The notes under the pieces: generated by a model | Database searches by the model: none | What the model was told of the DNA's origin: nothing | The model's input: only the letters and a program-made list of their open reading frames with translations | From: Escherichia coli | Lineage (GTDB): Bacteria; Pseudomonadota; Gammaproteobacteria; Enterobacterales; Enterobacteriaceae | Assembly: GCF_030013205.1 (NCBI RefSeq) | Contig: NZ_CP122648.1 | Reading direction: 5' to 3' (one strand) | Length of the DNA: 64,000 nucleotides | Program-made: the position numbers and the translations under genes | Shown: piece after piece, positions 700-64,000 of the stretch | Layout: every line of letters begins with the position of its first letter | How positions within the stretch are numbered: position 1 is the first letter of the stretch

Positions 700-1701
700 T
701 TACTTCGCTGCAACTTTTTCTCGCAGTGCGCGTTTTTCCTCAGCGTTGAGGAAAGCCATTTCCAGACCATTAATCTGTGCCTGGCGGATTTGCTCGCGGG
801 ATAACCCAGCAGCCGGCGCGGCAACGGTATATTCGTGAATGATATCCACTCCCTGTACGCCGGGATCGTCAGTGTTAATGCTGGCACGAATGCCATGCTC
901 AAGGAACGTTTTCAGCGGATGTGCAGCCAGCTCTGCTACGGTGCTGGTCTGAATATTGGAGGTCAGACAGGATTCAATACCAATTTGTTGCTCGGCGAGG
1001 AAATCCATCAGCGCCCGATCTTCAATGGCTTTTACGCCATGTCCAATACGCTCCGCACCCAGTTCACGAATCGCCTGCCAGATGCTTTCCGGCCCGGCAG
1101 CTTCGCCTGCATGGACGGTAATATGCCAGCCCGCATCACGCGCGCGGTTGAAGTGAGAAAGGAACAGACTTCCCGGGAAACCAAGTTCATCACCGGCTAA
1201 ATCAAGTGCGGTAATCTGGTCATGGTGGGCTAAAAAGGCCTCCAGTTCTTGCTGACAGGCGGCTTCGCCGAAGGTCCGGCTCATAATGCCGATAAGCTTC
1301 GCCTGCACACCAAAGGTGCGGCAACCCTCACGTACGCCATCGATCACCGCTTCGACAACACCCGCTACAGGCAGCTGATGTGCCATTGCCATGTAGCCCG
1401 GTGAAAAACGCAGCTCGACATAGTGCAGGTCGTTACGGGCTGCATCTTCAATGTTTTCAAATGCCACGCGGCGACAGGCATCAAGAGAGGCGAGAACTTT
1501 AACGCCCCAGTCAAGTTTGGTCAGAAAGCTCACAAGATCGGGTTCGTTGGCAATGACCTGAACGTGGGGAATAAGTGTTTCCAGGGATTGTGCAGGAAGC
1601 GAGATATTATACTGGCGGCCAAGTTCAAGAATGGTCTGGGGACGAATGTTACCATCAAGGTGGCGATGGATATCAGTTAATGGCAGGGTGGTATCAATCA
1701 T
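700..1701 (-). CDS. add: adenosine deaminase
   Basis: 333-aa ORF; translation recognised as Add; conserved neighbourhood. Confidence 0.95.
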
Positions 1702-1804
1702 GGTCGCACTCTTTTTCTGGATATAAAAGTGCGCACCATTATAAAAACAAAGCAGGGTAAAAATCCACGATTGCGCAACGATTTTTTACGTTGCGCAATT
1801 TGGG

Positions 1805-2977
1805 TTAACGAACAGCGCGGATGGCGTTAATTAATCCAGCCACACCTTTTTCCAGTTTCGAACGCGGGCACCCGGCATTGAGACGAACAAAACCATGACC
1901 TTCTTCACCGTAGGTATACCCCGGCATGATCGCGACCTTCTCTTGCTCGATAAGCACTTTTTGCAACGCGTTGTCGTCAATATTCAACGGACGTAGATCA
2001 ATCCAGGCCAGATAAGTGGATTGCGGGATCTGCCAGTTGAGTTCAGGGAACGCGGCGTTCATTTTATCTGCGATATACGTCAGGTTATCTTTCAGATAGA
2101 CGCGTAAGGCATCCAGCCACGGCGCGCCTTGCTGATAGGCGGCGATATGGGCAGTTAACGCCAGTACCGAAGGGGAAGAAAGGCCATCACGTCCTTTCAG
2201 TGCCGATAAATAGGCATCACGGCTGCTGCTATTTTCTATAATCCCGTAAGCACCGGTCAGGGCGGGAATATTGAAACTTTTCGATCCCGACGTTAGCAAT
2301 GCCCAGTCTCCGCGCGCCACATTACTCCAGGGAATATGCGGCTGCTCGCCCCAAACCATATCCATATGGATTTCATCGGAAATAACCCGCACACCATGAC
2401 GCTCGCACAGGTCAGCCATGATCTCCAGTTCATCGCACGTCCACACTTTCCTGGTAGGATTCTGTGGGCTACACAGGAGCATAATTTTACATTCTGGTTT
2501 CGCCAACACGGCTTCCAGCTTGCCCATATCGCAAAACCAGCCGTCAGCCCGCTTCTCTAAAGCGACGGGCATTACTGTGCGCTGGTTACCTTCAATGGCC
2601 TTGTAAAATGCGTCATAGGCGGGTGTGTGGATCACCACGCCTTCACCTTTTTCAGACCACTGACGAATCAGTTCCGAGACCATGTAGATAACAGAAGGGC
2701 CATACACCACCGACTGCGTATCAATGGCGGTGTAATGCTGGGTGGAAAACCAGTGGGCAATAGCCGCGAGAAACTCATCGTTTTTCCAGCGGCTGTAGCC
2801 AAACACGCCGTGCATCAGGCGCTGATTCAGCGCCTCGATAATGCAGGGGGCAGTGGCAAAATCCATGTCTGAAATCGTGAACGGTAACAGGTCAGCAGTG
2901 CCGAAACGGTCAGCGACATAATCCCACTGCGTACACCATGTGCCATGACGATCCACGACCTTTGAAAAATCGAACAT
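1805..2977 (-). CDS. malY: MalY, PLP-dependent cystathionine beta-lyase / mal regulon modulator
   Basis: 390-aa ORF recognised as MalY; directly downstream of malX. Confidence 0.95.
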   Translation of the reverse strand: MFDFSKVVDRHGTWCTQWDYVADRFGTADLLPFTISDMDFATAPCIIEALNQRLMHGVFGYSRWKNDEFLAAIAHWFSTQHYTAIDTQSVVYGPSVIYMVSELIRQWSEKGEGVVIHTPAYDAFYKAIEGNQRTVMPVALEKRADGWFCDMGKLEAVLAKPECKIMLLCSPQNPTRKVWTCDELEIMADLCERHGVRVISDEIHMDMVWGEQPHIPWSNVARGDWALLTSGSKSFNIPALTGAYGIIENSSSRDAYLSALKGRDGLSSPSVLALTAHIAAYQQGAPWLDALRVYLKDNLTYIADKMNAAFPELNWQIPQSTYLAWIDLRPLNIDDNALQKVLIEQEKVAIMPGYTYGEEGHGFVRLNAGCPRSKLEKGVAGLINAIRAVR

Positions 2978-2986
2978 ATCTTATCC

Positions 2987-5782
<2,796 letters not shown>

Positions 5783-7811: not shown

Positions 7812-11044
<3,233 letters not shown>

Positions 11045-15177: not shown

Positions 15178-15375
15178 GATCAATCCCTGTTTTAATGTGG
15201 AAATTAATCCCGCTATTAAAGCAAGAATCCTACGGGAAGTAACCTGGAGCCGCAAAAAGTCGTACTAGTCTCAGTTTTTGTTAAAAAAGTGTGTAGGATA
15301 TTGTTACTCGCTTTTAACAGGGCAACGGAACACCCGCCCAGAGCATAACCAAACCAGGCAGTAAGTGAGAGAACA

Positions 15376-55850: not shown

Positions 55851-56190
55851 ATTGATAACAGAGGGCGTTGCAGCGGGGTTGTCACTTAAGCGTATGGTCA
55901 ACCTGACAACCCGGTGTCCTCAACGGGGAAGGAATAACCCCGCCATACTTACCGCCGCGCCATTTCGCGGGTTGCCACAACCGGAAGCGCACGGTCGACG
56001 AAAATTTAACGACAGGCTATCTATGAACCAGCTACCTCGCCGTGCGCTTTCGCGTTATGGTCTGACTTTTCAGGGAAATATCCTTTCAGTAAACTGTCAG
56101 TTCCGGATGCGCACCCGTGTCCGGCGCACGCACTCCACCTCACCCGTGGAGAACTCCTTAATTACTAACCTTAGCTTTGTTGATTAGCTA

Positions 56191-56409
56191 CTAACGCGGG
56201 TATGTAATCATTCTGGCAATGCTTAATGCCGCTGCTTTTTCCAGATTGGTGATATCCTGCTCCAGAGCGGACAGATTTTCAGCCTGCTTAGCCCTGGCTT
56301 CATTAGCCCATTTCAGATCCTGCGCTGCATTAATTTTCTGGCGCATCCACTCATAAAGTTCATCATCGGTATAGTCTGGCGCGATGATGACGGGTTCTCG
56401 TTTCTGCAT
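56191..56409 (-). CDS. ydfC: Qin prophage protein YdfC
   Basis: 72-aa ORF in the dicB operon upstream of dicF. Confidence 0.8.
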   Translation of the reverse strand: MQKREPVIIAPDYTDDELYEWMRQKINAAQDLKWANEARAKQAENLSALEQDITNLEKAAALSIARMITYPR

Positions 56410-56438
56410 ACTGATTCCTCGCGGTGCTGTTTCGCTTA

Positions 56439-56567
56439 TCAGCCGTTAGATTTTGCCGAACTGGAAAGCGCCTGTTTAAACTCACTGAAGCTGAGAGCTT
56501 CTTCGCCTTCGGCAAGGCCTTCGAAGTATTCTTCGTAAGCCTTTTCCATGATTGTGTCGAAATCCAT
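56439..56567 (-). CDS. ydfB: Qin prophage small protein YdfB (42 aa)
   Basis: Hand-translated MDFDTIMEKAYEEYFEGLAEGEEALSFSEFKQALSSSAKSNG*; below the ORF-track cutoff. Confidence 0.75.
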   Translation of the reverse strand: MDFDTIMEKAYEEYFEGLAEGEEALSFSEFKQALSSSAKSNG

Positions 56568-56568
56568 A

Positions 56569-56724
56569 TCACTCACCTGAGTTTCTTTCCAGCCAGCGAC
56601 GGGCACCATTTTCGGTTTTAAACGTTTTGCTTTTGGTATACGTCATTGCGGTGAACGTGCCGTCCTGGTTTGGAAACACGCCGTACACCAGAGATTCGTT
56701 GTTGCCAAGATCGATAGTATCCAT
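56569..56724 (-). CDS. ydfA: Qin prophage small protein YdfA (51 aa)
   Basis: ORF trimmed to MDTIDLGNNESLVYGVFPNQDGTF...; first gene after dicA. Confidence 0.75.
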   Translation of the reverse strand: MDTIDLGNNESLVYGVFPNQDGTFTAMTYTKSKTFKTENGARRWLERNSGE

Positions 56725-56890
56725 GCTGACCTCATTTCCCCTTAACGCTGGGGTAGCGGAACTGTTTGCTGAGAACACCGTGCGGTGTGTTGATGCAAAC
56801 AAGATTAGCCATGACTAACATATCGGTCAAGTGATTTTGTATGCTATAGCTAACATAATTGATGTGGTAAAAGATAACTCATTGATGATG

Positions 56891-57298
56891 TTATCTTTTA
56901 TTTGTCCGCTGACGGGCTTTTAGTAATTCTTCAAAGAGTTTATTGAAGTTTTTTACTCGAGCTCGCATTTCGGCGAGCTGGGTATCCTGTTCTGATTCTG
57001 GCAGTGCATTAAACAGCTCAAGGAGCTCTAGTTCTTTGGGGGATAAGGCAACTGGCTTCTCAACAGGTGGTGTTGGTTGCTTGTCTTCATCGCCAAATAG
57101 AATCCATGTTGGTGAGCATTGCAATACTTTGCTGAGGGCAAAAAGGTTCTTCCCTGTAGGTTCACTATCACCCCGTTCCCATTGTGATACAGACACATGG
57201 GAGATTTTCAGGGCTTTAGCAAGAGAGCTTTGGGTGTGTTTGAGGTTTTTCCGACGATACCTGATGCGTTCGCCGATAGTTAAATTTTTTGTTTCCAT
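56891..57298 (-). CDS. dicA: XRE-family HTH repressor DicA (cI-like)
   Basis: 135-aa ORF with N-terminal HTH; divergent from dicC. Confidence 0.92.
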   Translation of the reverse strand: METKNLTIGERIRYRRKNLKHTQSSLAKALKISHVSVSQWERGDSEPTGKNLFALSKVLQCSPTWILFGDEDKQPTPPVEKPVALSPKELELLELFNALPESEQDTQLAEMRARVKNFNKLFEELLKARQRTNKR

Positions 57299-57381
57299 AG
57301 TTAGCTAATGCTAAATCGTATTGACTATGTTTTTGTTAACATCTATCTTGTTAGTTATGACTAACAATAAAGGTGTTTTAA
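57299..57381. promoter_or_regulatory. dicA-dicC divergent promoter/operator region
   Basis: 83-bp AT-rich spacer containing dyads TTAGCTAA and TTAGT-TATG-ACTAA between divergent repressor genes. Confidence 0.55.
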
Positions 57382-57612
57382 ATGCTTAAAACTGACGCTC
57401 TTTTGTATTTCGGTTCAAAAACAAAACTTGCACAAGCAGCAGGTATTCGTTTGGCTTCGCTTTATAGCTGGAAAGGGGATTTAGTTCCCGAAGGTCGCGC
57501 GATGCGTCTACAGGAGGCATCTGGCGGGGAGCTTCAGTATGATCCCAAAGTTTATGATGAATATCGTAAGACGAAGCGGGCGGGGCGGTTGAACAATGAA
57601 AATCACTCCTGA
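57382..57612 (+). CDS. dicC: Cro-like regulator DicC
   Basis: 76-aa ORF divergent from dicA; recognised as DicC. Confidence 0.9.
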   Translation: MLKTDALLYFGSKTKLAQAAGIRLASLYSWKGDLVPEGRAMRLQEASGGELQYDPKVYDEYRKTKRAGRLNNENHS

Positions 57613-57919
57613 ACAGGCTCGTGAGGCTCTGGATGCCTGGATATGTCGACCAGGAATGACACAGGAGCAGGCGACGATATTAATCACTGAAGCATTCTGG
57701 GCTTTGAAAGAGCGCCCGAACATCGATGTTCAGCGTGTCACATATGAAGGTGGCGCGATTGATCAGCGAGCGCTTGGCGTTATCTGGTCATCACCTGACG
57801 GAGAAATACGTCGCTACGACAGTCGCCTAAACATAATCTGTCGCGAGTGCCGGAAGAGCGAAGTTATGCAGCGCATACTGGCTTTCTATCAGGGTAATTT
57901 TCAGGACGTGGCGCAGTGA
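57596..57919 (+). CDS. hypothetical prophage protein (YdfX-like position), Cys-containing
   Basis: 107-aa ORF overlapping the dicC 3' end by 17 nt; CxxC at CRECRK; family not assigned. Confidence 0.5.
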   Translation: MKITPEQAREALDAWICRPGMTQEQATILITEAFWALKERPNIDVQRVTYEGGAIDQRALGVIWSSPDGEIRRYDSRLNIICRECRKSEVMQRILAFYQGNFQDVAQ

Positions 57920-58272
57920 GTGCACCGGCAACCATTCTTGATATGTGCTGTGGCAGCCGCATGTTCTGGTTCGATAAGTCTGACGAACGGGCGATATTCA
58001 GCGATATCAGAAAAGAAGGATACACATTACGCAATGGGAGACGCTTGATTATCAGCCCTGACATTATCGCAGATTTTCGTGCATTATCATTTGCAGACGC
58101 ATCTTTTTCGATGGTTGTATTAGACCCTCCGCATCTTGAGAGTGTTGGTGATAACGCCTGGATGGGAAAGAAATATGGACGGCTGAATAAAGATGCCTGG
58201 CGTGATGATTCGCGACAGAGATTTAAAGAAGCCTTTCGGGGGTTGAGGCCGCACGGCGTTCTGATTTTTTAA
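57916..58272 (+). pseudogene. short SAM-methyltransferase-like ORF, probably truncated
   Basis: 118-codon ORF starting at GTG overlapping the upstream stop; motif-I-like ILDMCCGS and DPPH (DPPY-like); ends at a T6 run. Confidence 0.4.
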
Positions 58273-58631
58273 TGGAATGAAACGCAAATACCGGTAAGCC
58301 AGATTCTGGCACTGACAGACAGAAAACCTGTTATCTGTCAACGAACAGGGAAAAAACGATAAAACCCACTGGATTATTTTTATGAAAGAGGCATCCAGTG
58401 AGTAGATTCGTAAGGCTACAGATACGTATATCTGAATAATTAAATTCAGTTCTGTAAATAAAATTTAATCCTTAACCGGATGGATTTCTGCACCCTCAGA
58501 ACATCAGGAGGCCGCCCGAAAGGGCGGTAGTGAAATGCGAATGTTCAAAATTATTATTGAAACGGGAATAGCTGGTGGAGATTTTGAGGATGTATTCGAA
58601 GTGGACGATGACGCAACACCTGAGGAAATTC

Positions 58632-58886
58632 ATGACGGAGCATAAGAAATTTTCTTTAACTACTGCAATTACTCATACCACGAAATAAAAGACGATGAGG
58701 AAGAACAAAGTGGCTGATTTTTGTTCAGCTAAATATAACATCAGTTTTGAAGAGCGGGATGAACTATTAATGGACTATGGTGAGTTACGCGGTGGAAGTG
58801 CTGCTGATGTCGAATCCTAGCGTGATGACTATGAAGCGGGAAAAACTCCGGTCGAAGCATATTGTGATGAGTGGGGCGATGAATGA
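58632..58886 (+). pseudogene. reading frame interrupted by in-frame TAA and TAG, otherwise open
   Basis: Hand translation MTEHKKFSLTTAITHTTK*KTMRKNKVADFCSAKYNISFEERDELLMDYGELRGGSAADVES*RDDYEAGKTPVEAYCDEWGDE*. Confidence 0.3.
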
Positions 58887-59170
58887 GCGAGATTAATTAT
58901 CAGGAAGGGCATGAAACGGCGGGGCAAGCAAAACCAGTGGCATGGCGATATCGCTACGTGAAAAAAGGCGTTACGGACTTTCAGGGGAAGTAGTGGTCTG
59001 GTGACTGGAAATATGTACCGAAAAAAGAGGATTGTAACGACAGGCCGAACTATCAAATTCAGGCCTTATTCACTGCCTCACCAGTCCCAGTTACATCAGA
59101 AGAACTGGTTAAAGCTGTGCACTTTTATGAACAACTAAAACGCGAAAATCCACCAACATCCGGCAACTAG
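58883..59170 (+). pseudogene. reading frame interrupted by one in-frame TAG, start overlaps previous stop (ATGA)
   Basis: Hand translation MSEINYQEGHETAGQAKPVAWRYRYVKKGVTDFQGK*WSGDWKYVPKKEDCNDRPNYQIQALFTASPVPVTSEELVKAVHFYEQLKRENPPTSGN*. Confidence 0.3.
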
Positions 59171-59424
59171 ATTAATGGATTAACTATGTCGGTTAAACGA
59201 CCAGCCAACTGAAAAAGCGGAAACCTGATTACAGGTTGCCAGATAAGGCAATGAGCTACCTGGCGCGGAACGGACTGATAAGTATGGGGAATGTTTTACG
59301 ATGAACCTTTAGACTAAAGAGTTTGTAACGCTATGTAAGTGATTTTTTCTGGTTTAGATATTTATATGTCCGGCCAAATTGAGGTGTGTTTAAATGTAAT
59401 TGCACATTGATTGTAGGAGGAATA

Positions 59425-59604
59425 ATGAAAAACGCATTGCAGTTTTTGTTTGTTGCGTTCTGGTTGTTCGCATCATGTATGCCCATCATCTTCACAGCAA
59501 GGTATATGGAAAAAGTTGATGTTTTGATATTAATATTTGGATATATAAATGCCCTTTTTTTAGGGGTGTTCATGGCGGTCATGTGCATTGAATACTGGCG
59601 GTAA
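59425..59604 (+). CDS. 59-aa hydrophobic (two predicted TM) small protein
   Basis: MKNALQFLFVAFWLFASCMPIIFTARYMEKVDVLILIFGYINALFLGVFMAVMCIEYWR; GGAGG about 6 nt upstream of the ATG. Confidence 0.45.
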   Translation: MKNALQFLFVAFWLFASCMPIIFTARYMEKVDVLILIFGYINALFLGVFMAVMCIEYWR

Positions 59605-59938
59605 ATACAGCGAACTCCATTGGTTTAGTTGGATATTTACTGTGCTGGACAAAAACGGTTTGCGGGGAAATCTTAGTTAAGTAGAATGACTGCGGGTGCT
59701 TGAGGCTATCTGCCTCGGGCATGGACACCAACGGCAGATAGAGAAAAGCCCCAGTTAACATTACGCGTCCTGCAAGACGCTTAACATTAATCTGAGGCCA
59801 ATTTCATGCTAGACACATGTAGGTTAGCCTCTTACGTGCCGAAAGGCACGGAGAAGCAGGCTATTGTTAACACCAAGTTGTAATGTCCCCTTTGAACCAT
59901 TCTAAAATGTCCCCAGACAATTCTCTGGGGGATTTTTC

Positions 59939-61252
59939 ATGATCAAAGAGACTGTTACGATGAGTCATAAGGAACTCCACCGACTTCAGATTATTCAGGA
60001 ACAAGCTGCGGCACGCATTGGCATTTCTATTCGGCAGGTTAAACGTCTGGTGCAACGGTATAGAAATGAAGGGCCTTCTGGTCTGGTTTCCCACCGACGT
60101 GGAAAGCGTCCTAATAATTCCTTTTCTACTGAATTCAGAGCAACAGTAATTTCACTCCTCAAAGGCCGTTACGCTGATTTTGGACCTACGTTTGCGTGCG
60201 AAAAATTGCGCGAGATACACGGTTTATCTTTATCCGTTGAAACTCTCAGAAAGTGGATGATAGAAGAGGGGTTATGGCGTGAACGCCGTCGTAAAATTGC
60301 CCGTATATATCAACGCCGCATGCGACGACCATCTTACGGTGAACTGATCCAGATTGATGGCTCACCTCATGACTGGTTTGAAAATCGAGGCCCCAGATGT
60401 ACACTGATCGTTTTCATTGATGATGCCACCAGTGCGTTGATGGCGTTGCGTTTTGTGCCTGCTGAAACAACCCGGGCTTACATGGAAACCCTCCGGGGTT
60501 ACCTTAATGATCATGGCGTACCGCTCGCTCTCTACTCTGATAGACACAGTATATTCAGGGTAAATAACCCAGAGCGGGAAGGTGAGCTGACCCAGTTCAC
60601 TCGTGCGATAAAGACACTGGGCATCGAGCCAATCCATGCCAACAGCCCGCAGGCAAAAGGGCGGGTAGAGCGCGCCAATCAGACACTACAGGACAGGCTG
60701 GTCAAAGAAATGCGGCTTCAGAATATCAGTGATATTGAAACAGCAAATGCATGGTTGCCGACCTTTATTGAAGCCTATAACAACCGGTTCGCTACGTCGC
60801 CTCGTACTACTGATAATGCTCATCTTGATGTGCACCATTCTGAAGAGGAACTGGGTTATATCTTCAGCCTACAGGCGAAGCGCGTTCTGTCTAAAAATCT
60901 CACTTTCCAGTACAAAAGCAGTGCGTTTCAGGTACGCAGTGAGGGCCGGGGATATCGACTTAGGCATTCGGTTGTTACTGTATGCGAGAACTTTGACGGT
61001 GAAATTAACGTTCTGTATGACGGGAAAGCGCTGGGCTGGGAAAAGTATGTTGATGGCCCGGAGCCTATACCACTGGATGATGAAAAGAGTGTCCATGAAC
61101 GAGTGGATAATGCCCGTATTGATTTACGCTCAAAATACTATGTTAAACCTAAAGCTGACCATCCCTGGCTTACGCGCCGAACGCAAAGTCATCAGCAAGT
61201 TAAGCCCCCGAAGTTACCTAAAAAGAAGCCTGATCCCGATAAAAAAGATTGA
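59939..61252 (+). CDS. DDE transposase with N-terminal HTH and rve-type integrase core (IS481/ISNCY-like), Lys-rich tail
   Basis: 437-aa ORF; HTH at IGISIRQVKRLVQRY; acidic residues in DGSPHDW / FIDDATS / RVERANQ context; family assigned from memory only. Confidence 0.65.
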   Translation: MIKETVTMSHKELHRLQIIQEQAAARIGISIRQVKRLVQRYRNEGPSGLVSHRRGKRPNNSFSTEFRATVISLLKGRYADFGPTFACEKLREIHGLSLSVETLRKWMIEEGLWRERRRKIARIYQRRMRRPSYGELIQIDGSPHDWFENRGPRCTLIVFIDDATSALMALRFVPAETTRAYMETLRGYLNDHGVPLALYSDRHSIFRVNNPEREGELTQFTRAIKTLGIEPIHANSPQAKGRVERANQTLQDRLVKEMRLQNISDIETANAWLPTFIEAYNNRFATSPRTTDNAHLDVHHSEEELGYIFSLQAKRVLSKNLTFQYKSSAFQVRSEGRGYRLRHSVVTVCENFDGEINVLYDGKALGWEKYVDGPEPIPLDDEKSVHERVDNARIDLRSKYYVKPKADHPWLTRRTQSHQQVKPPKLPKKKPDPDKKD

Positions 61253-61586
61253 AACCAAGATCGATTCGGTTGAGTGCATATCCATTCATAGGGTAGATTC
61301 TTAAGTCGCGTTTCTGGTGTTCATTTTCGGGTGGTTTGTTACTTGTTTTACCGGGGATATGCCAGAAACGCGCTGAGTCAGTCTGGGCGGTGCGCGTAAT
61401 GAGGCGTTATGGTAAATAGCCTATGCTAATGTCCGCTAAGAGCAAGAAGCGGAAGTTGGCAGTTTTGTGGACTGTCCCCACAAAAGTGACTACAGAAATA
61501 GTTGCAATTCATAATTGATCATGGGTTGTCAGTTAAACTCGTGGCGATTTAAATAGACTAATTGGGAGTGCGTCCATTACTTATAT

Positions 61587-61635
61587 CTTGTAATGTTAAC
61601 TATCAGAAATTCTTGTAATGTTAACTATCAGAAAT
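61587..61635. repeat. Two tandem copies of a 24-bp unit CTTGTAATGTTAACTATCAGAAAT separated by 1 nt
   Basis: Read directly: 61587-61610 and 61612-61635 are identical; located 3' of flxA. Confidence 0.9.
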
Positions 61636-61713
61636 GATACAAAGATAATATGTCTTTAAAGAAAAGGCTGATGGCGAAAAGTGGCCCGATGAGGGCCACA
61701 ATACGGCTGTCAC

Positions 61714-62046
61714 TTAGACGTAAATATCAATGGTGCCAGCGGTATTTGTATCGTCTTTTTTCTCTTCTTTTTTATCAGGCTGAACTGTCGCGTCTTCATT
61801 CTTTTTCTCTGCCTGCTGCCTTAACAACTGCTCCAGTTGAGCCCAGAGGCTTTCAATTTGCTTCTGTACCAATGCAGCCATTTCTTTTTTCTGCTGTGTC
61901 GTCATCCCCTCTTCCGATGAGATTTTCCCAAGCTTTTCAGTCAGCACCTGAATTTGTCTTGTGATTTTGGCTATTTCTGATGTTCCTTCCGGGGCGGAGT
62001 TGTTTGAAATAACGGTTGAGGTATTTCCCTGAATTGTGACAGACAT
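61714..62046 (-). CDS. flxA: FlxA (FliA-regulated Qin prophage protein)
   Basis: 110-aa ORF MSVTIQGNTSTVISNN... recognised as FlxA; AGGAG upstream. Confidence 0.88.
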   Translation of the reverse strand: MSVTIQGNTSTVISNNSAPEGTSEIAKITRQIQVLTEKLGKISSEEGMTTQQKKEMAALVQKQIESLWAQLEQLLRQQAEKKNEDATVQPDKKEEKKDDTNTAGTIDIYV

Positions 62047-62069
62047 AGATTTCTCCTTTTAAAAAAGCA

Positions 62070-62096
62070 CTATCGGCATGCACAAAAAAATCTTTA
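62070..62096 (-). promoter_or_regulatory. sigma-28 (FliA) type promoter for flxA
   Basis: Minus strand TAAAGATT-N11-GCCGATAG versus consensus TAAAGTTT-N11-GCCGATAA, about 25-50 nt upstream of the flxA ATG. Confidence 0.75.
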
Positions 62097-62248
62097 ATCG
62101 TATTTCTTGTGTCATTAATTGTTTGATGTTCAGATTGTTTTCCTCGCGGGCTGGCGCGCCTCAGAAAGTAAAGCTTGTTGACAGGGGTAAACGTTCGGCA
62201 ATAATTTTCTGCCGCATGCGGGTGTTGCATAAAACGTGTTACGTTCCT

Positions 62249-62554
62249 TTATCGACAGGTCAGGTCACCGCTCACCCGCCGACGAGAAAGCAACACTGAC
62301 ATGCTAAAGCAAAAAATAGATGAATAAGTTGAGTTGTGCATATGTAGCCTGACCGTCACAAAGTATATGGTGTCTGTACCAGTAAGATGATGGCCGGACT
62401 CTTTAAAAACGAGCTGACCTGCACAATACAGGATGGACTTAGCAATGGCTGCTCCTGGCACAAAGCGGACAGTGATCACCGTTCTTACGACTACTTTCTG
62501 ACTTCCTTCGTGACTTGCCCTAAGCATGTTGTAGTGCGATACTTGTAATGACAT
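62249..62554 (-). CDS. ydfV: Qin prophage protein YdfV
   Basis: 101-aa ORF between flxA and relB; identity by position and length, low compositional confidence. Confidence 0.5.
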   Translation of the reverse strand: MSLQVSHYNMLRASHEGSQKVVVRTVITVRFVPGAAIAKSILYCAGQLVFKESGHHLTGTDTIYFVTVRLHMHNSTYSSIFCFSMSVLLSRRRVSGDLTCR

Positions 62555-62566
62555 TTGTAATTACAA
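62543..62566. promoter_or_regulatory. relBE operator (relO) dyad
   Basis: TTGTAATGACATTTGTAATTACAA, containing the 12-bp palindrome TTGTAATTACAA, 13 nt upstream of the relB ATG. Confidence 0.7.
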
Positions 62567-62578
62567 GAGGTGTAAGAC

Positions 62579-62818
62579 ATGGGTAGCATTAACCTGCGTA
62601 TTGACGATGAACTTAAAGCGCGTTCTTACGCCGCGCTTGAAAAAATGGGTGTAACTCCTTCTGAAGCGCTTCGTCTCATGCTCGAGTATATCGCTGACAA
62701 TGAACGCTTGCCGTTCAAACAGACACTCCTGAGTGATGAAGATGCTGAACTTGTGGAGATAGTGAAAGAACGGCTTCGTAATCCTAAGCCAGTACGTGTG
62801 ACGCTGGATGAACTCTGA
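62579..62818 (+). CDS. relB: antitoxin RelB
   Basis: 79-aa ORF recognised as RelB. Confidence 0.95.
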   Translation: MGSINLRIDDELKARSYAALEKMGVTPSEALRLMLEYIADNERLPFKQTLLSDEDAELVEIVKERLRNPKPVRVTLDEL

Positions 62819-63105
62819 TGGCGTATTTTCTGGATTTTGACGAGCGGGCACTAAAGGAATGGCGAAAGCTGGGCTCGACGGTACGTGAACAGTTGAAAAA
62901 GAAGCTGGTTGAAGTACTTGAGTCACCCCGGATTGAAGCAAACAAGCTCCGTGGTATGCCTGATTGTTACAAGATTAAGCTCCGGTCTTCAGGCTATCGC
63001 CTTGTATACCAGGTTATAGACGAGAAAGTTGTCGTTTTCGTGATTTCTGTTGGGAAAAGAGAACGCTCGGAAGTATATAGCGAGGCGGTCAAACGCATTC
63101 TCTGA
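62818..63105 (+). CDS. relE: mRNA interferase toxin RelE
   Basis: 95-aa ORF overlapping the relB stop by 1 nt (TGATG); recognised as RelE. Confidence 0.95.
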   Translation: MAYFLDFDERALKEWRKLGSTVREQLKKKLVEVLESPRIEANKLRGMPDCYKIKLRSSGYRLVYQVIDEKVVVFVISVGKRERSEVYSEAVKRIL

Positions 63106-63176
63106 ACCAAAGCATGACATCTCTGTTTCGCACCGAAGGTGACACTTCTGCTTTGCGTTGACAGGAGAAGCAGGCT

Positions 63177-63332
63177 ATGAAGCAGCAAAAGGCGATGTTA
63201 ATCGCCCTGATCGTCATCTGTTTAACCGTCATAGTGACGGCACTGGTAACGAGGAAAGACCTCTGCGAGGTACGAATCCGAACCGGCCAGACGGAGGTCG
63301 CTGTCTTCACAGCTTACGAACCTGAGGAGTAA
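63177..63332 (+). CDS. hokD: Hok-family membrane toxin HokD (RelF)
   Basis: Hand-translated 51-aa ORF MKQQKAMLIALIVICLTVIVTALVTRKDLCEVRIRTGQTEVAVFTAYEPEE with AGGAG upstream; below ORF-track cutoff. Confidence 0.85.
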   Translation: MKQQKAMLIALIVICLTVIVTALVTRKDLCEVRIRTGQTEVAVFTAYEPEE

Positions 63333-63401
63333 GAGACCCGGCGGGGGAGAAATCCCTCGCCACCTCTGATGTGGCAGGCATCCTCAACGCACCCGCACTT
63401 A

Positions 63402-63430
63402 ACCCGCTTCGGCGGGTTTTTGTTTTTATT
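63402..63430 (+). terminator. Rho-independent terminator after hokD
   Basis: ACCCGC-TTCG-GCGGGT followed by TTTTTGTTTTTATTTT. Confidence 0.7.
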
Positions 63431-63548
63431 TTCAACGCGTTTGAAGTTCTGGACGGTGCCGGAATAGAATCAAAAATACTTAAGTAGCGCGCAGGGATAA
63501 GAGGGATGGTCCCTTAAAGGGGAGAGCTAATTATCCGGAAGGATTCTG

Positions 63549-63800
63549 ATGATGAACATCGAAGAACTGCGTAAAATTTTTTGTGAAGATGGCCTCTATG
63601 CTGTGTGCGTTGAAAATGGAAATCTTGTTAGTCATTACCGCATTATGTGTTTGCGAAAGAATGGGGCTGCGTTAATTAATTTTGTGGATGCTCGGGTCAC
63701 GGACGGATTTATCTTGCGCGAAGGTGAGTTTGTCACTTCATTACAGGCATTGAAAGAGATCGGAATAAAAGCTGGCTTTTCTGCTTTTTCAGGAGAATAA
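63549..63800 (+). CDS. rem: Qin prophage protein Rem
   Basis: 83-aa ORF MMNIEELRKIFCEDGLYAVC... at the position of rem after hokD. Confidence 0.7.
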   Translation: MMNIEELRKIFCEDGLYAVCVENGNLVSHYRIMCLRKNGAALINFVDARVTDGFILREGEFVTSLQALKEIGIKAGFSAFSGE

Positions 63801-63866
63801 ACTCATCTACAATCTTGCGCGGGGCTGAACTCCCGCTGAGTAACACCGTGCCACCGGAGAAAACCG

Positions 63867-64000
63867 ATGGCACGCAACGCAAAATATTACAATTCTGATA
63901 ATTCGCCCGTTCTTGCCTGCACGCACGGGCGGTATTCTCACGCATTCAAGTCTGAATGGTTCCAGCACCCTCCATGCACTGCAGAACAGGCCGAATGGCT
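63867..64000 (+). CDS. ydfU: 5' part of YdfU-like prophage protein (continues beyond window)
   Basis: ATG at 63867 opens frame MARNAKYYNSDNSPVLACTHGRYSHAFKSEWFQHPPCTAEQAEW... running to the window edge; call by position only. Confidence 0.4.
   Translation, partial: MARNAKYYNSDNSPVLACTHGRYSHAFKSEWFQHPPCTAEQAEW

Follow-up and report, generated by a model that had tools for sequence, protein, structure and literature searches.

Features of the dicC–hokD region

The window analysed here is a stretch of 64,000 nucleotides of Escherichia coli DNA (contig NZ_CP122648.1, assembly GCF_030013205.1), and our subject is the segment of it that extends from dicC, in a Qin-type prophage, past flxA and relBE to the toxin gene hokD. 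Between these landmarks lie a short open reading frame (ORF) that overlaps the dicC stop codon by 17 nt, a truncated phage methyltransferase gene, two pseudogenes, a hydrophobic ORF, the leader of hokD and a transposase gene, tnp (Table 1). An earlier note had described about 4 kb of mixed content between dicC and flxA, gave a much shorter interval for K-12 and interpreted the locus as a replication module, either replaced or decayed, to which an insertion sequence (IS) had been added. The gap from dicC to flxA indeed measures ~4.1 kb, compared with 883 bp in K-12 MG1655 (dicC end 1647620, flxA end 1646737), where ydfX and ydfW are the sole content; the size comparison was thus correct. The 107-codon ORF, the methyltransferase-like ORF, the two interrupted frames, the membrane ORF, the hairpins and the transposase are all found where they had been placed, and the possibility that K-12 holds the same content at the same length was checked and is not the case.

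Window positions 56500–63000 are 100% identical to several chromosomes of pig enterotoxigenic E. coli, and at least 80% of this segment is covered in 460 complete E. coli genomes. Mixed content, an excess of size over K-12 and a decayed module were confirmed, and are ordinary in themselves. It is highly probable that the interval is composed of two unrelated parts, a decaying Qin-type early-right region (57596–59864) and an ISEsa1-type transposon that extends from 59865 to 63163 and is inserted at the start of hokD.

Table 1. Features between dicC and hokD, with positions in the 64,000-nt window.
Feature	Position	Strand	Basis and remarks
dicC (cro-like), left anchor of the interval	57382–57612	+	NCBIfam PRK09744 DicC, 159.5 bits; PGAP dicC in a 100%-identical genome
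107-codon in-frame chimera: 62 YdaT/cII-like codons and the last 45 DUF977 codons	57596–57919	+	blastn; PHROG; PGAP
Nonsense-truncated phage DNA methyltransferase, 118 codons	57916–58272	+	PHROG 954, 2e-56, profile positions 52–165/229
DUF7167 pseudogene, internal stop	58535–58717	+	PGAP of an identical genome
Hypothetical-protein pseudogene, frameshift and stop	58883–59304	+	PGAP; interruptions visible in three-frame translation
59-codon hydrophobic ORF with AGGAGG Shine-Dalgarno sequence; candidate gene	59425–59604	+	ORF list and sequence
Complete hokD leader (promoter-proximal hok mRNA folds, mok start, sok antisense gene)	59694–59864	+	Rfam RF01794
Target-site duplication, left copy, 15 bp GGAGAAGCAGGCTAT (hok Shine-Dalgarno sequence and 'AT' of ATG)	59850–59864		Single copy in L009
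ISEsa1-type (IS1202-family) transposon, 3,299 bp: left arm, cargo, right arm	59865–63163	+	Exact absence from empty site L009; TGT...ACA ends; 15-bp flanking repeats
Left inverted repeat (IRL) TGTTAACACCAAGTTGTAATGTCCCCTTTG	59865–59894	+	Against the reverse complement of the right end: 21/30 positions, 15 of the first 22
Transposase, 437 aa	59939–61252	+	NCBIfam NF033594 ISNCY_2, 456 bits (cut-off 250)
cer/dif-like XerC/XerD site GGTGCGCGTAA-TGAGGCG-TTATGGTAAAT	61389–61417	+	Pattern scan
Palindrome AATGTCCGCT-N10-AGCGGAAGTT, end of left arm and start of cargo	61428–61457	+	Boundary alignment of six elements
Cargo of the Qin copy: flxA (61714–62046, −) and most of the ydfV ORF	61458–62450		Arms conserved, middle not
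Conserved right arm: relB promoter region, relB (62579–62818), relE (62818–63105), right inverted repeat	62451–63163	+	~98.4–99.9% identical in L010, L011, L053, L068, L073
Right inverted repeat (IRR), ...GGTGACACTTCTGCTTTGCGTTGACA	63134–63163	+	Pairs with IRL
Target-site duplication, right copy, 15 bp	63164–63178		Restores hokD Shine-Dalgarno sequence and start
hokD, intact, 51 aa	63177–63332	+	ORF list; PGAP; alignment to L009 hokD

A 3,299-bp insertion at the hokD start codon

A search with the two flanks joined retrieved L009, a Qin-like prophage in NZ_CP145662, in which the same leader is directly continued by hokD: L009 4419–5064 corresponds to window 59218–59864, and L009 5049–5884 to window 63163–63998. 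Because L009 lacks exactly the segment 59865–63163, we regard this segment as an insertion. The 15-bp direct repeat GGAGAAGCAGGCTAT is perfect on both flanks and occurs in one copy in the uninterrupted L009. The element begins with TGTTAACACC and finishes with GCGTTGACA, giving imperfect inverted TGT...ACA ends, and carries inner repeats at both sides, AATGTCCCC twice at the left end (ATGTCC at 59883 and 59907) and GTGTCA/ATGTCA at the right end. The right-hand feature that the earlier note had ended at 61650 is in fact part of one insertion that also includes flxA, ydfV and relBE, and what had been taken for an added IS forms the left arm of a longer transposon, whose right inverted repeat lies beyond relE and outside the interval then considered.

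In the survey of Harmer & Hall (2023, PMC10132070), ISEsa1 has a length of 1,609 bp and no target duplication that could be detected, and members of the IS1202 family have TGT/ACA ends. That a decayed replication module is accompanied here by such an ordinary, self-contained 1.6-kb IS, with flxA, ydfV and relBE as resident Qin genes, is very unlikely. The left part truly is a decayed replication region, ISfinder gives ISEsa1 as a 1,609-bp IS (PMC10132070), the conserved left arm stops at 61447–61457, and one cargo type opens with a weak IRR-like sequence, all of which would suit such an arrangement. The alignment to the empty site contradicts it, as the uninterrupted site is devoid of the whole 3.3 kb and not merely of 1.6 kb. 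Neither here nor in the published survey (PMC10132070) does a target duplication surround a 1.6-kb unit. The segment 59865–63163 is enclosed by a good inverted repeat and by perfect repeats of 15 bp; moreover, relBE and IRR accompany the same tnp on unrelated plasmids, again beside hok. At the end of the 1.6-kb conserved stretch (near 61446–61457) we looked for a 1,609-bp unit with a 15/22 repeat and found neither an inverted repeat nor a duplication, and an IS right end at this place was ruled out since no inverted repeat matches the ISfinder values. A ~1.6-kb unit with its own inverted repeats, as ISEsa1 is catalogued, is thus not what the window contains: end repeats are absent and the uninterrupted site lacks 3.3 kb. 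The inverted repeats I7/I8 (AGTTAACATTAC), likewise considered as IS ends, turned out to be a hok-leader motif and the 25-bp tandem repeat near flxA. The catalogued 1,609 bp equal the distance from IRL to the ISEsa2 insertion point in the Salmonella plasmid copy L011, once a 27-bp deletion is allowed for, and this may be how the entry was delimited.

The transposase and its upstream region

The transposase combines helix-turn-helix (HTH) domains at residues 20–107 (Pfam HTH_32/29/28/23) with an rve/rve_3 core at 135–282. As a single protein with an N-terminal HTH and a DDE/RNase H core, within the range of 394–507 aa, it conforms to the IS1202 family, as do the TGT...ACA ends with imperfect terminal repeats of ~24–26 bp and an extra inner repeat. 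For the target duplication, which in this family comprises 3–5, 16–17 or 27–28 bp, the 15 bp of the window are in keeping with the family, being near the 16–17-bp class. BLASTP aligned the protein to the 446-aa ISEsa1 transposase of plasmids with 437/446 identities and one 9-aa gap; the underlying 27-bp in-frame deletion lies in the first HTH, the gap falling between imperfect repeats at 59987–60000. K-12 ydfW equals the last 49 transposase codons (61103–61252), in frame.

In NZ_CP122719, PGAP annotates a transposase 'incomplete, missing C-terminus' (window 59960–60982) and, separately, ydfW in the same frame; despite this annotation, the transposase frame is unbroken for 437 codons and short of just the 9 internal residues. 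Upstream of it, overlapping frames occupy 59806–59942: a mok-like frame (ATG 59806) ends at TAA 59881–59883 within IRL, this TAA shares sequence with the ATG of an upstream ORF of 19 codons (59883–59942), the TGA of which likewise overlaps the ATG of tnp at 59939. The tnp Shine-Dalgarno sequence is covered by a GC-rich hairpin of 8 bp with a T-run (59910–59931). This chain of frames and the hairpin may couple or insulate transposase expression.

Conserved arms enclose an exchangeable cargo

The conserved left arm runs from 59865 to ~61450 and comprises tnp, an Xer-like site and a palindrome. The site at 61389–61417, which we take to be an Xer site on the basis of the known dif and cer sequences, has two 11-bp arms that agree with the consensus around a spacer of the expected 6–8 bp. 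It is the sole match in the 64-kb window, no match arose in 100 shuffles, and it is kept in 6/6 elements compared; K-12 also has it, at 1647009–1647037, ~57 kb from the chromosomal dif region. In one metagenomic element (L068 1552–2822), a 1.2-kb module with two small ORFs is bounded on one side by the conserved Xer site and on the other by a further Xer-like site, TGGTACATGTA-GTGAGGCG-TTATGGTAAAT, and resembles a dif module.

The cargo is bounded by two similar GTCCGCT-N10-AGCGGAC palindromes in the window and in L010, L011, L053, L068 and L073. In the window, the left border palindrome folds at −8.8 kcal/mol (z −4.3), and the right one (62425–62455), whose left arm is degenerate, gives no fold (z 0.52). 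The stems resemble the subterminal AATGTCCCC repeats of IRL, and the palindromes may represent transposase sites, terminators or cargo-exchange sites. Beside flxA, between it and the transposase gene, the window carries a 25-bp tandem duplication (61590–61639, GTAATGTTAACTATCAGAAAT...) of which K-12 and phage PhiR42_1 have one copy, and the 3,274-bp and 3,299-bp variants of the element differ because they contain one or two copies of this repeat. The ydfV ORF (62249–62554) straddles the border of right arm and cargo, so that its first 33 codons are common to all elements and the remainder depends on the cargo (64–101 codons); this straddling argues against a conserved protein-coding gene, and ydfV is probably not a gene. 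At the other end, relBE is readily identified: window 61068–63500 differs from K-12 by a single 25-bp gap outside relBE, the K-12 relBE being identical, and the PGAP accessions (WP_000534858.1 and WP_000323025.1) are the same on a Salmonella plasmid.

Independent insertions with both ends and matching duplications were found in L011, L010, L068 and L073. L011, on a Salmonella IncHI2 plasmid, is 6,093 bp long with the duplication GGAGAAGAAGGCCAT and holds ISEsa2, cytochrome b and a cation-diffusion transporter ahead of relBE, with a Hok gene after IRR. The 12,843-bp element L010 (CP056442), on an Enterobacter plasmid with the duplication GGAGAAGAAGGCCTG, carries ncrABCY and chrA and then relBE, and a second IRL follows in tandem in the regenerated target. 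Both metagenome contigs show 16-bp duplications, around a 4,237-bp element with three small ORFs (L068) and a 4,600-bp element with cytochrome b and a cation-diffusion transporter (L073). The architecture of the window recurs in L053, in which the same Qin hokD insertion with the same 437-aa transposase has a hydrolase and a LysR regulator in place of flxA. Duplications are perfect over 15 bp in Qin, L010 and L011 and over 16 bp in L067, L068 and L073; an adjacent A is ambiguous, and with it they would count as 16–17 bp. Each target has its own duplicated sequence, which therefore stems from the target DNA and is no core borne by the element. As to tandem insertions, a second IRL was observed exactly 15 bp past the IRR of the first element in L010 (reverse strand 15280–15296) and in L090 (11714–11730), in both cases within the target copy produced by the earlier insertion.

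These arms also bear on a different account, in which ISEsa1 skipped a weak right end and used a surrogate end downstream in the manner of ISEcp1, thereby once mobilizing a plasmid stability region with the Xer site and relBE. A degenerate IRR-like motif directly after the left arm of the ncr-cargo element, the transposase-site-like stems of the cargo-border palindromes and the likeness of Xer site and relBE to a plasmid stability region are in line with it. Yet the distal right arm is ~98.4–99.9% identical in all six cargo types and is used by every complete element, and the 21/30 match of the distal IRR to IRL, together with the repeated subterminal motif, exceeds what is expected of a surrogate end. 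We consider this scenario very unlikely, and it concerns the origin of the element rather than its present nature. Entry of the flxA–relBE block by recombination, whether site-specific (for instance through XerCD at the cer-like site) or homologous (for instance between hok loci), with the direct repeats as shared homology, is scarcely credible: a conserved Xer-like site does lie inside the element, and copies actively recombine, as is evident from mismatched flanks (L049, L077) and from L053, where one and the same Qin insertion has exchanged its cargo, but the repeats are placed at the outer TGT/ACA ends instead of the Xer site, differ between insertions, always equal the local target sequence and occur as a single copy in the uninterrupted site.

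Insertion separates hokD from its leader

Among the features noted earlier, the hairpin-rich segment proved to be present at 59694–59864 and to be no filler, since it makes up the 5′ half of the type I toxin–antitoxin locus of hokD. Rfam RF01794 'sok' matches 59694–59865 with 104.1 bits (gathering score 59; model 1–157/157; E 1.5e-23). The sok model reaches the hok AUG, and in the window its last base is the first base of the transposase-bearing element. The leader is 86–89% identical to the stretch immediately upstream of hok on plasmids. A complete hok/sok arrangement, in which a sok-bearing leader is followed by a Hok ORF of ~50 aa, is thus contiguous in L009 and split by the transposon in the window, where the insertion has placed the hok promoter, the mok start and the sok gene physically apart from the coding sequence of hokD. 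Directly upstream of hokD there is now relE in place of its own leader; the element ends 14 nt before the hokD start codon, and the right copy of the duplication restores the ATG of hokD and its ribosome-binding site immediately behind relE.

Two other interpretations of this junction were rejected. A hok-like leader as part of the IS is at variance with the strong differences between leaders of different copies, compared with 99.7% identity of the IS, and with the existence of an uninterrupted leader–hokD site. For the remains of a hok coding sequence within the 205 bp that follow tnp, inspection of all frames by eye gave a faint, unconvincing resemblance; the real hokD follows IRR. Just past hokD, at 63341–63422, Rfam reports a weak isrK-like match (25 bits against a gathering score of 50), which is probably the hokD 3′ stem-loop or terminator and not isrK.

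Preference for hok translation starts and distribution

Exact-pattern scans for IRL or IRR returned 4, 46 and 45 loci. They yielded 33 distinct 60-nt left flanks, about 24–26 of which are 3′ ends of hok leaders as judged by reading, and full-length matches to the sok model abut IRL in eight different leaders (window, L011, L015, L049, L064, L068, L073 and L081). At hok loci the element adopts one orientation, with IRL toward the leader and IRR toward the hok coding sequence. The hok genes that follow IRR are of diverse kinds, comprising HokD, R1-Hok-like, PndA-like and another type.

The hok start is also occupied by a different IS in L082 (5507–6780; also L065, L074, L077 and L100), which has an rve-type transposase on the opposite strand and ends CACAKATATTGCAAT and is located at GGAGWTGTATG|GGTCC...; at sites of this type, the ISEsa1-type element was inserted later, beside the different IS.

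Of 5,426 complete E. coli genomes, 690 carry the left junction of the insertion and 1,163 carry the right one. The right arm is present in 784 plasmid records, at ≥99% identity in 703 of them, and these plasmids are mostly conjugative and come from Klebsiella, Enterobacter, Escherichia, Citrobacter, Salmonella and others.

Decay of the Qin early-right region

In ATCC 8739 and the 48.7-kb phage PhiR42_1, dicC is followed by genes for a 173-aa YdaT/cII-like protein, a 321-aa O-like initiator, a 140-aa DUF977 'Ren-like' protein and the methyltransferase and by small genes. ATCC 8739, PhiR42_1 and L009 all have a gene for the O-like replication initiator (PHROG 391, 1e-91); in the window, none is found downstream of the cro/cII position, where it has been deleted, and a lambdoid O/P-type replication module is accordingly not present. 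By blastn, window 56001–57782 corresponds to positions 1502–3283 of the ATCC 8739 locus L002 and window 57780–63500 to L002 4888–10608, so that L002 3284–4887 is absent, with 3 bp of microhomology at the junction (57780–57782). This deletion of 1.6 kb relative to ATCC 8739 and PhiR42_1, which bears out the decayed lambdoid replication region suspected earlier, took the C-terminus of the YdaT/cII-like protein, the entire 321-aa O-like initiator and the DUF977 N-terminus. Because the window is without L002 3284–4887 and the junction shows microhomology, the 107-codon ORF is a YdaT'::'DUF977 chimera; PHROG 163 matches its residues 1–49 and PHROG 142 its residues 48–106, and PGAP annotates the span as two partial pseudogenes in a 100%-identical genome. 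A different Qin deletion variant was observed in the left flanks of L022, L071 and L092, in which the DUF977 3′ end (...RLNIICRECRK) is joined directly to the hairpin of the hok leader, GTGCCGGAAGGCAAGGAG, shortly before IRL.

When the methyltransferase gene is read through its stop codon, the PHROG 954 match reaches position 194 and the score rises from 191.8 to 241.3 bits; Pfam matches are marginal only. The truncated form is shared by ATCC 8739 and PhiR42_1. L009 holds an intact 45-aa copy of the DUF7167 gene. The 59-codon hydrophobic ORF has no family match in PHROG or NCBIfam and is not annotated by PGAP, and tblastn against phages gave only copies at least 98% identical to it.

K-12 as a deletion derivative

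K-12 matches the ATCC 8739 locus L002 through position 3376 and resumes at 8176 (blastn), and hence has a 4.8-kb deletion that runs from inside the YdaT-like gene to inside tnp. As K-12 retains 93 bp more of the YdaT-like gene, its deletion and that of the window are independent. Lost from K-12 are the O-like gene, the methyltransferase gene, the sok leader, IRL and most of tnp; retained are the transposase tail (ydfW), the Xer-like site, flxA, relBE, IRR ending at 1645288, a copy of the duplication and hokD. To judge by sequence, ydfX of K-12 is a YdaT fragment and ydfW a transposase fragment. K-12 thus descends from a full-length form like ATCC 8739, and its hokD lost the sok/mok region in two steps, separation by the transposon followed by deletion of the leader.

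A possible class of site-specific transposons homing to hok

It is possible, in our judgement at somewhat less than an even chance, that ISEsa1-type elements constitute an unrecognized class of site-specific transposons that home to hok translation starts on plasmids and prophages, substitute relBE for Sok control and swap cargo such as metal-resistance operons by means of the Xer site and the palindromes, with tnp possibly placed under the captured hok/mok leader; relBE, flxA, ydfV, ydfW and the 'truncated' hokD of K-12 would then be parts or scars of one such element. Under the more probable and narrower reading of the insertion as an ISEsa1-type transposon, the single transposase would recognize the conserved region around the hok start; genes for accessory targeting proteins are not visible. 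Such targeting would steer the element into plasmids and prophages. The relBE pair would serve as the retention module of the element itself, and cargo would be exchanged between the conserved arms. Combined with established knowledge of these systems, the junctions suggest that the insertion freed hokD from control by Sok and created the relB-relE-hokD ('relBEF') operon known in K-12. In that strain, relB, relE and hokD (relF) are reportedly co-transcribed, a result that Gotfredsen and Gerdes are said to have obtained in 1998.

Several observations weigh against the reading of the locus as a transposon that targets hok. Six left-flank types are not hok (L013, L025, L085, L099, L101 and L091/L104). 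Of these, L025 1345–4645 is a Qin-type element of 3,301 bp with flxA cargo at a non-hok site, flanked only by the 6-bp repeat CGCCTT; for its empty site, the closest uninterrupted E. coli sequence is just 83% identical. Either hok specificity is not absolute, or the non-hok copies have been rearranged. The mismatched flank pairs of L049 and L077 imply that recombination between copies also moves arms. The 9-aa HTH deletion occurs in every Qin copy whose transposase gene was examined, and the Qin copy may be inactive because of it. The reported 1,609-bp length with a 15/22 inverted repeat was not reproduced, the plasmid ncr cargo begins, right after the left arm, with the weak IRR-like motif TTTGGTTGACG, and the 1.6-kb IS may also be able to move alone. 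Finally, we infer the mobility of the element from its duplications and independent contexts.

The transposon reading accounts for the origin of the much-studied relBE-hokD operon of K-12, which in all likelihood represents the right arm of an element inserted at the start codon of hokD, and it explains several oddities among K-12 genes. It links the model relBE system to a widespread plasmid element, and the transposon backbone is present in roughly 700–800 sequenced Enterobacterales plasmids, with nickel, chromate and cation-efflux cargo and an addiction module of its own. The definition of ISEsa1 would be corrected and its missing target duplication explained. More generally, the data point to a new targeting principle, homing to a toxin–antitoxin locus that marks mobile DNA. 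Integration of plasmid-derived relBE into hokD has been noted earlier, apparently with no vehicle named (PMC6379469). We found no published description of the transposon or of hok targeting in a search that covered few subscription papers and neither ISfinder nor TnCentral, and the transposon is apparently undescribed so far.

Comparison with known systems

The element is closest to the IS1202 family (formerly the IS1202 group of ISNCY), which includes ISEsa1 and the dif/pdif-targeting ISAjo2 group and likewise combines a large HTH-DDE transposase and TGT...ACA ends with oriented, site-specific insertion. In contrast to catalogued ISEsa1, the mobile unit here is 3.3–12.8 kb long, has its right end past relBE and generates a duplication of 15–16 bp. 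Unlike members of the family that target dif, it is directed to the hok start region and carries an internal Xer-like site, a toxin–antitoxin pair and exchangeable cargo.

With Tn7 and Tn7-like elements it shares a DDE transposase of the TnsB-like lineage (according to the modelling in PMC10132070), TGT/ACA ends that contain several transposase sites, a fixed orientation at a specific attachment site and variable cargo between conserved arms. However, it has no TnsA, TnsC, TnsD or TniQ genes, its duplication comprises 15–16 bp and not 5 bp, and it targets the interior of a toxin locus, not a position downstream of a housekeeping gene. Tn3-family transposons with type II toxin–antitoxin systems (Lima-Mendez et al. 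2020, PMC7157771) similarly possess a fixed backbone pair beside a recombination site along with variable cargo, whereas the element described here uses a transposase of another family, has no resolvase and bears the pair at its extreme right end, reading out into hok.

In the dif modules of Acinetobacter, which are bounded by pdif XerC/D sites, a conserved Xer-type site also adjoins a segment of variable content in otherwise identical backbones. The present element differs in having one clear, putative Xer site per element and in cargo borders that are formed by the GTCCGCT-N10-AGCGGAC palindrome.

Finally, the chromosomal hok loci of K-12 are reportedly disrupted by IS elements, with hokD/relF described as 'truncated'; the accounts of Gotfredsen and Gerdes from 1998 and of Pedersen and Gerdes from 1999 are not known to have identified a transposon or a target duplication there. 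In those loci, too, hok has been inactivated or rewired by a mobile element, and hokD of K-12 lacks sok and mok and is co-transcribed with relBE. Compared with these accounts, the missing leader is found here 3.3 kb upstream of hokD, and its loss from K-12 can be traced to a later deletion.

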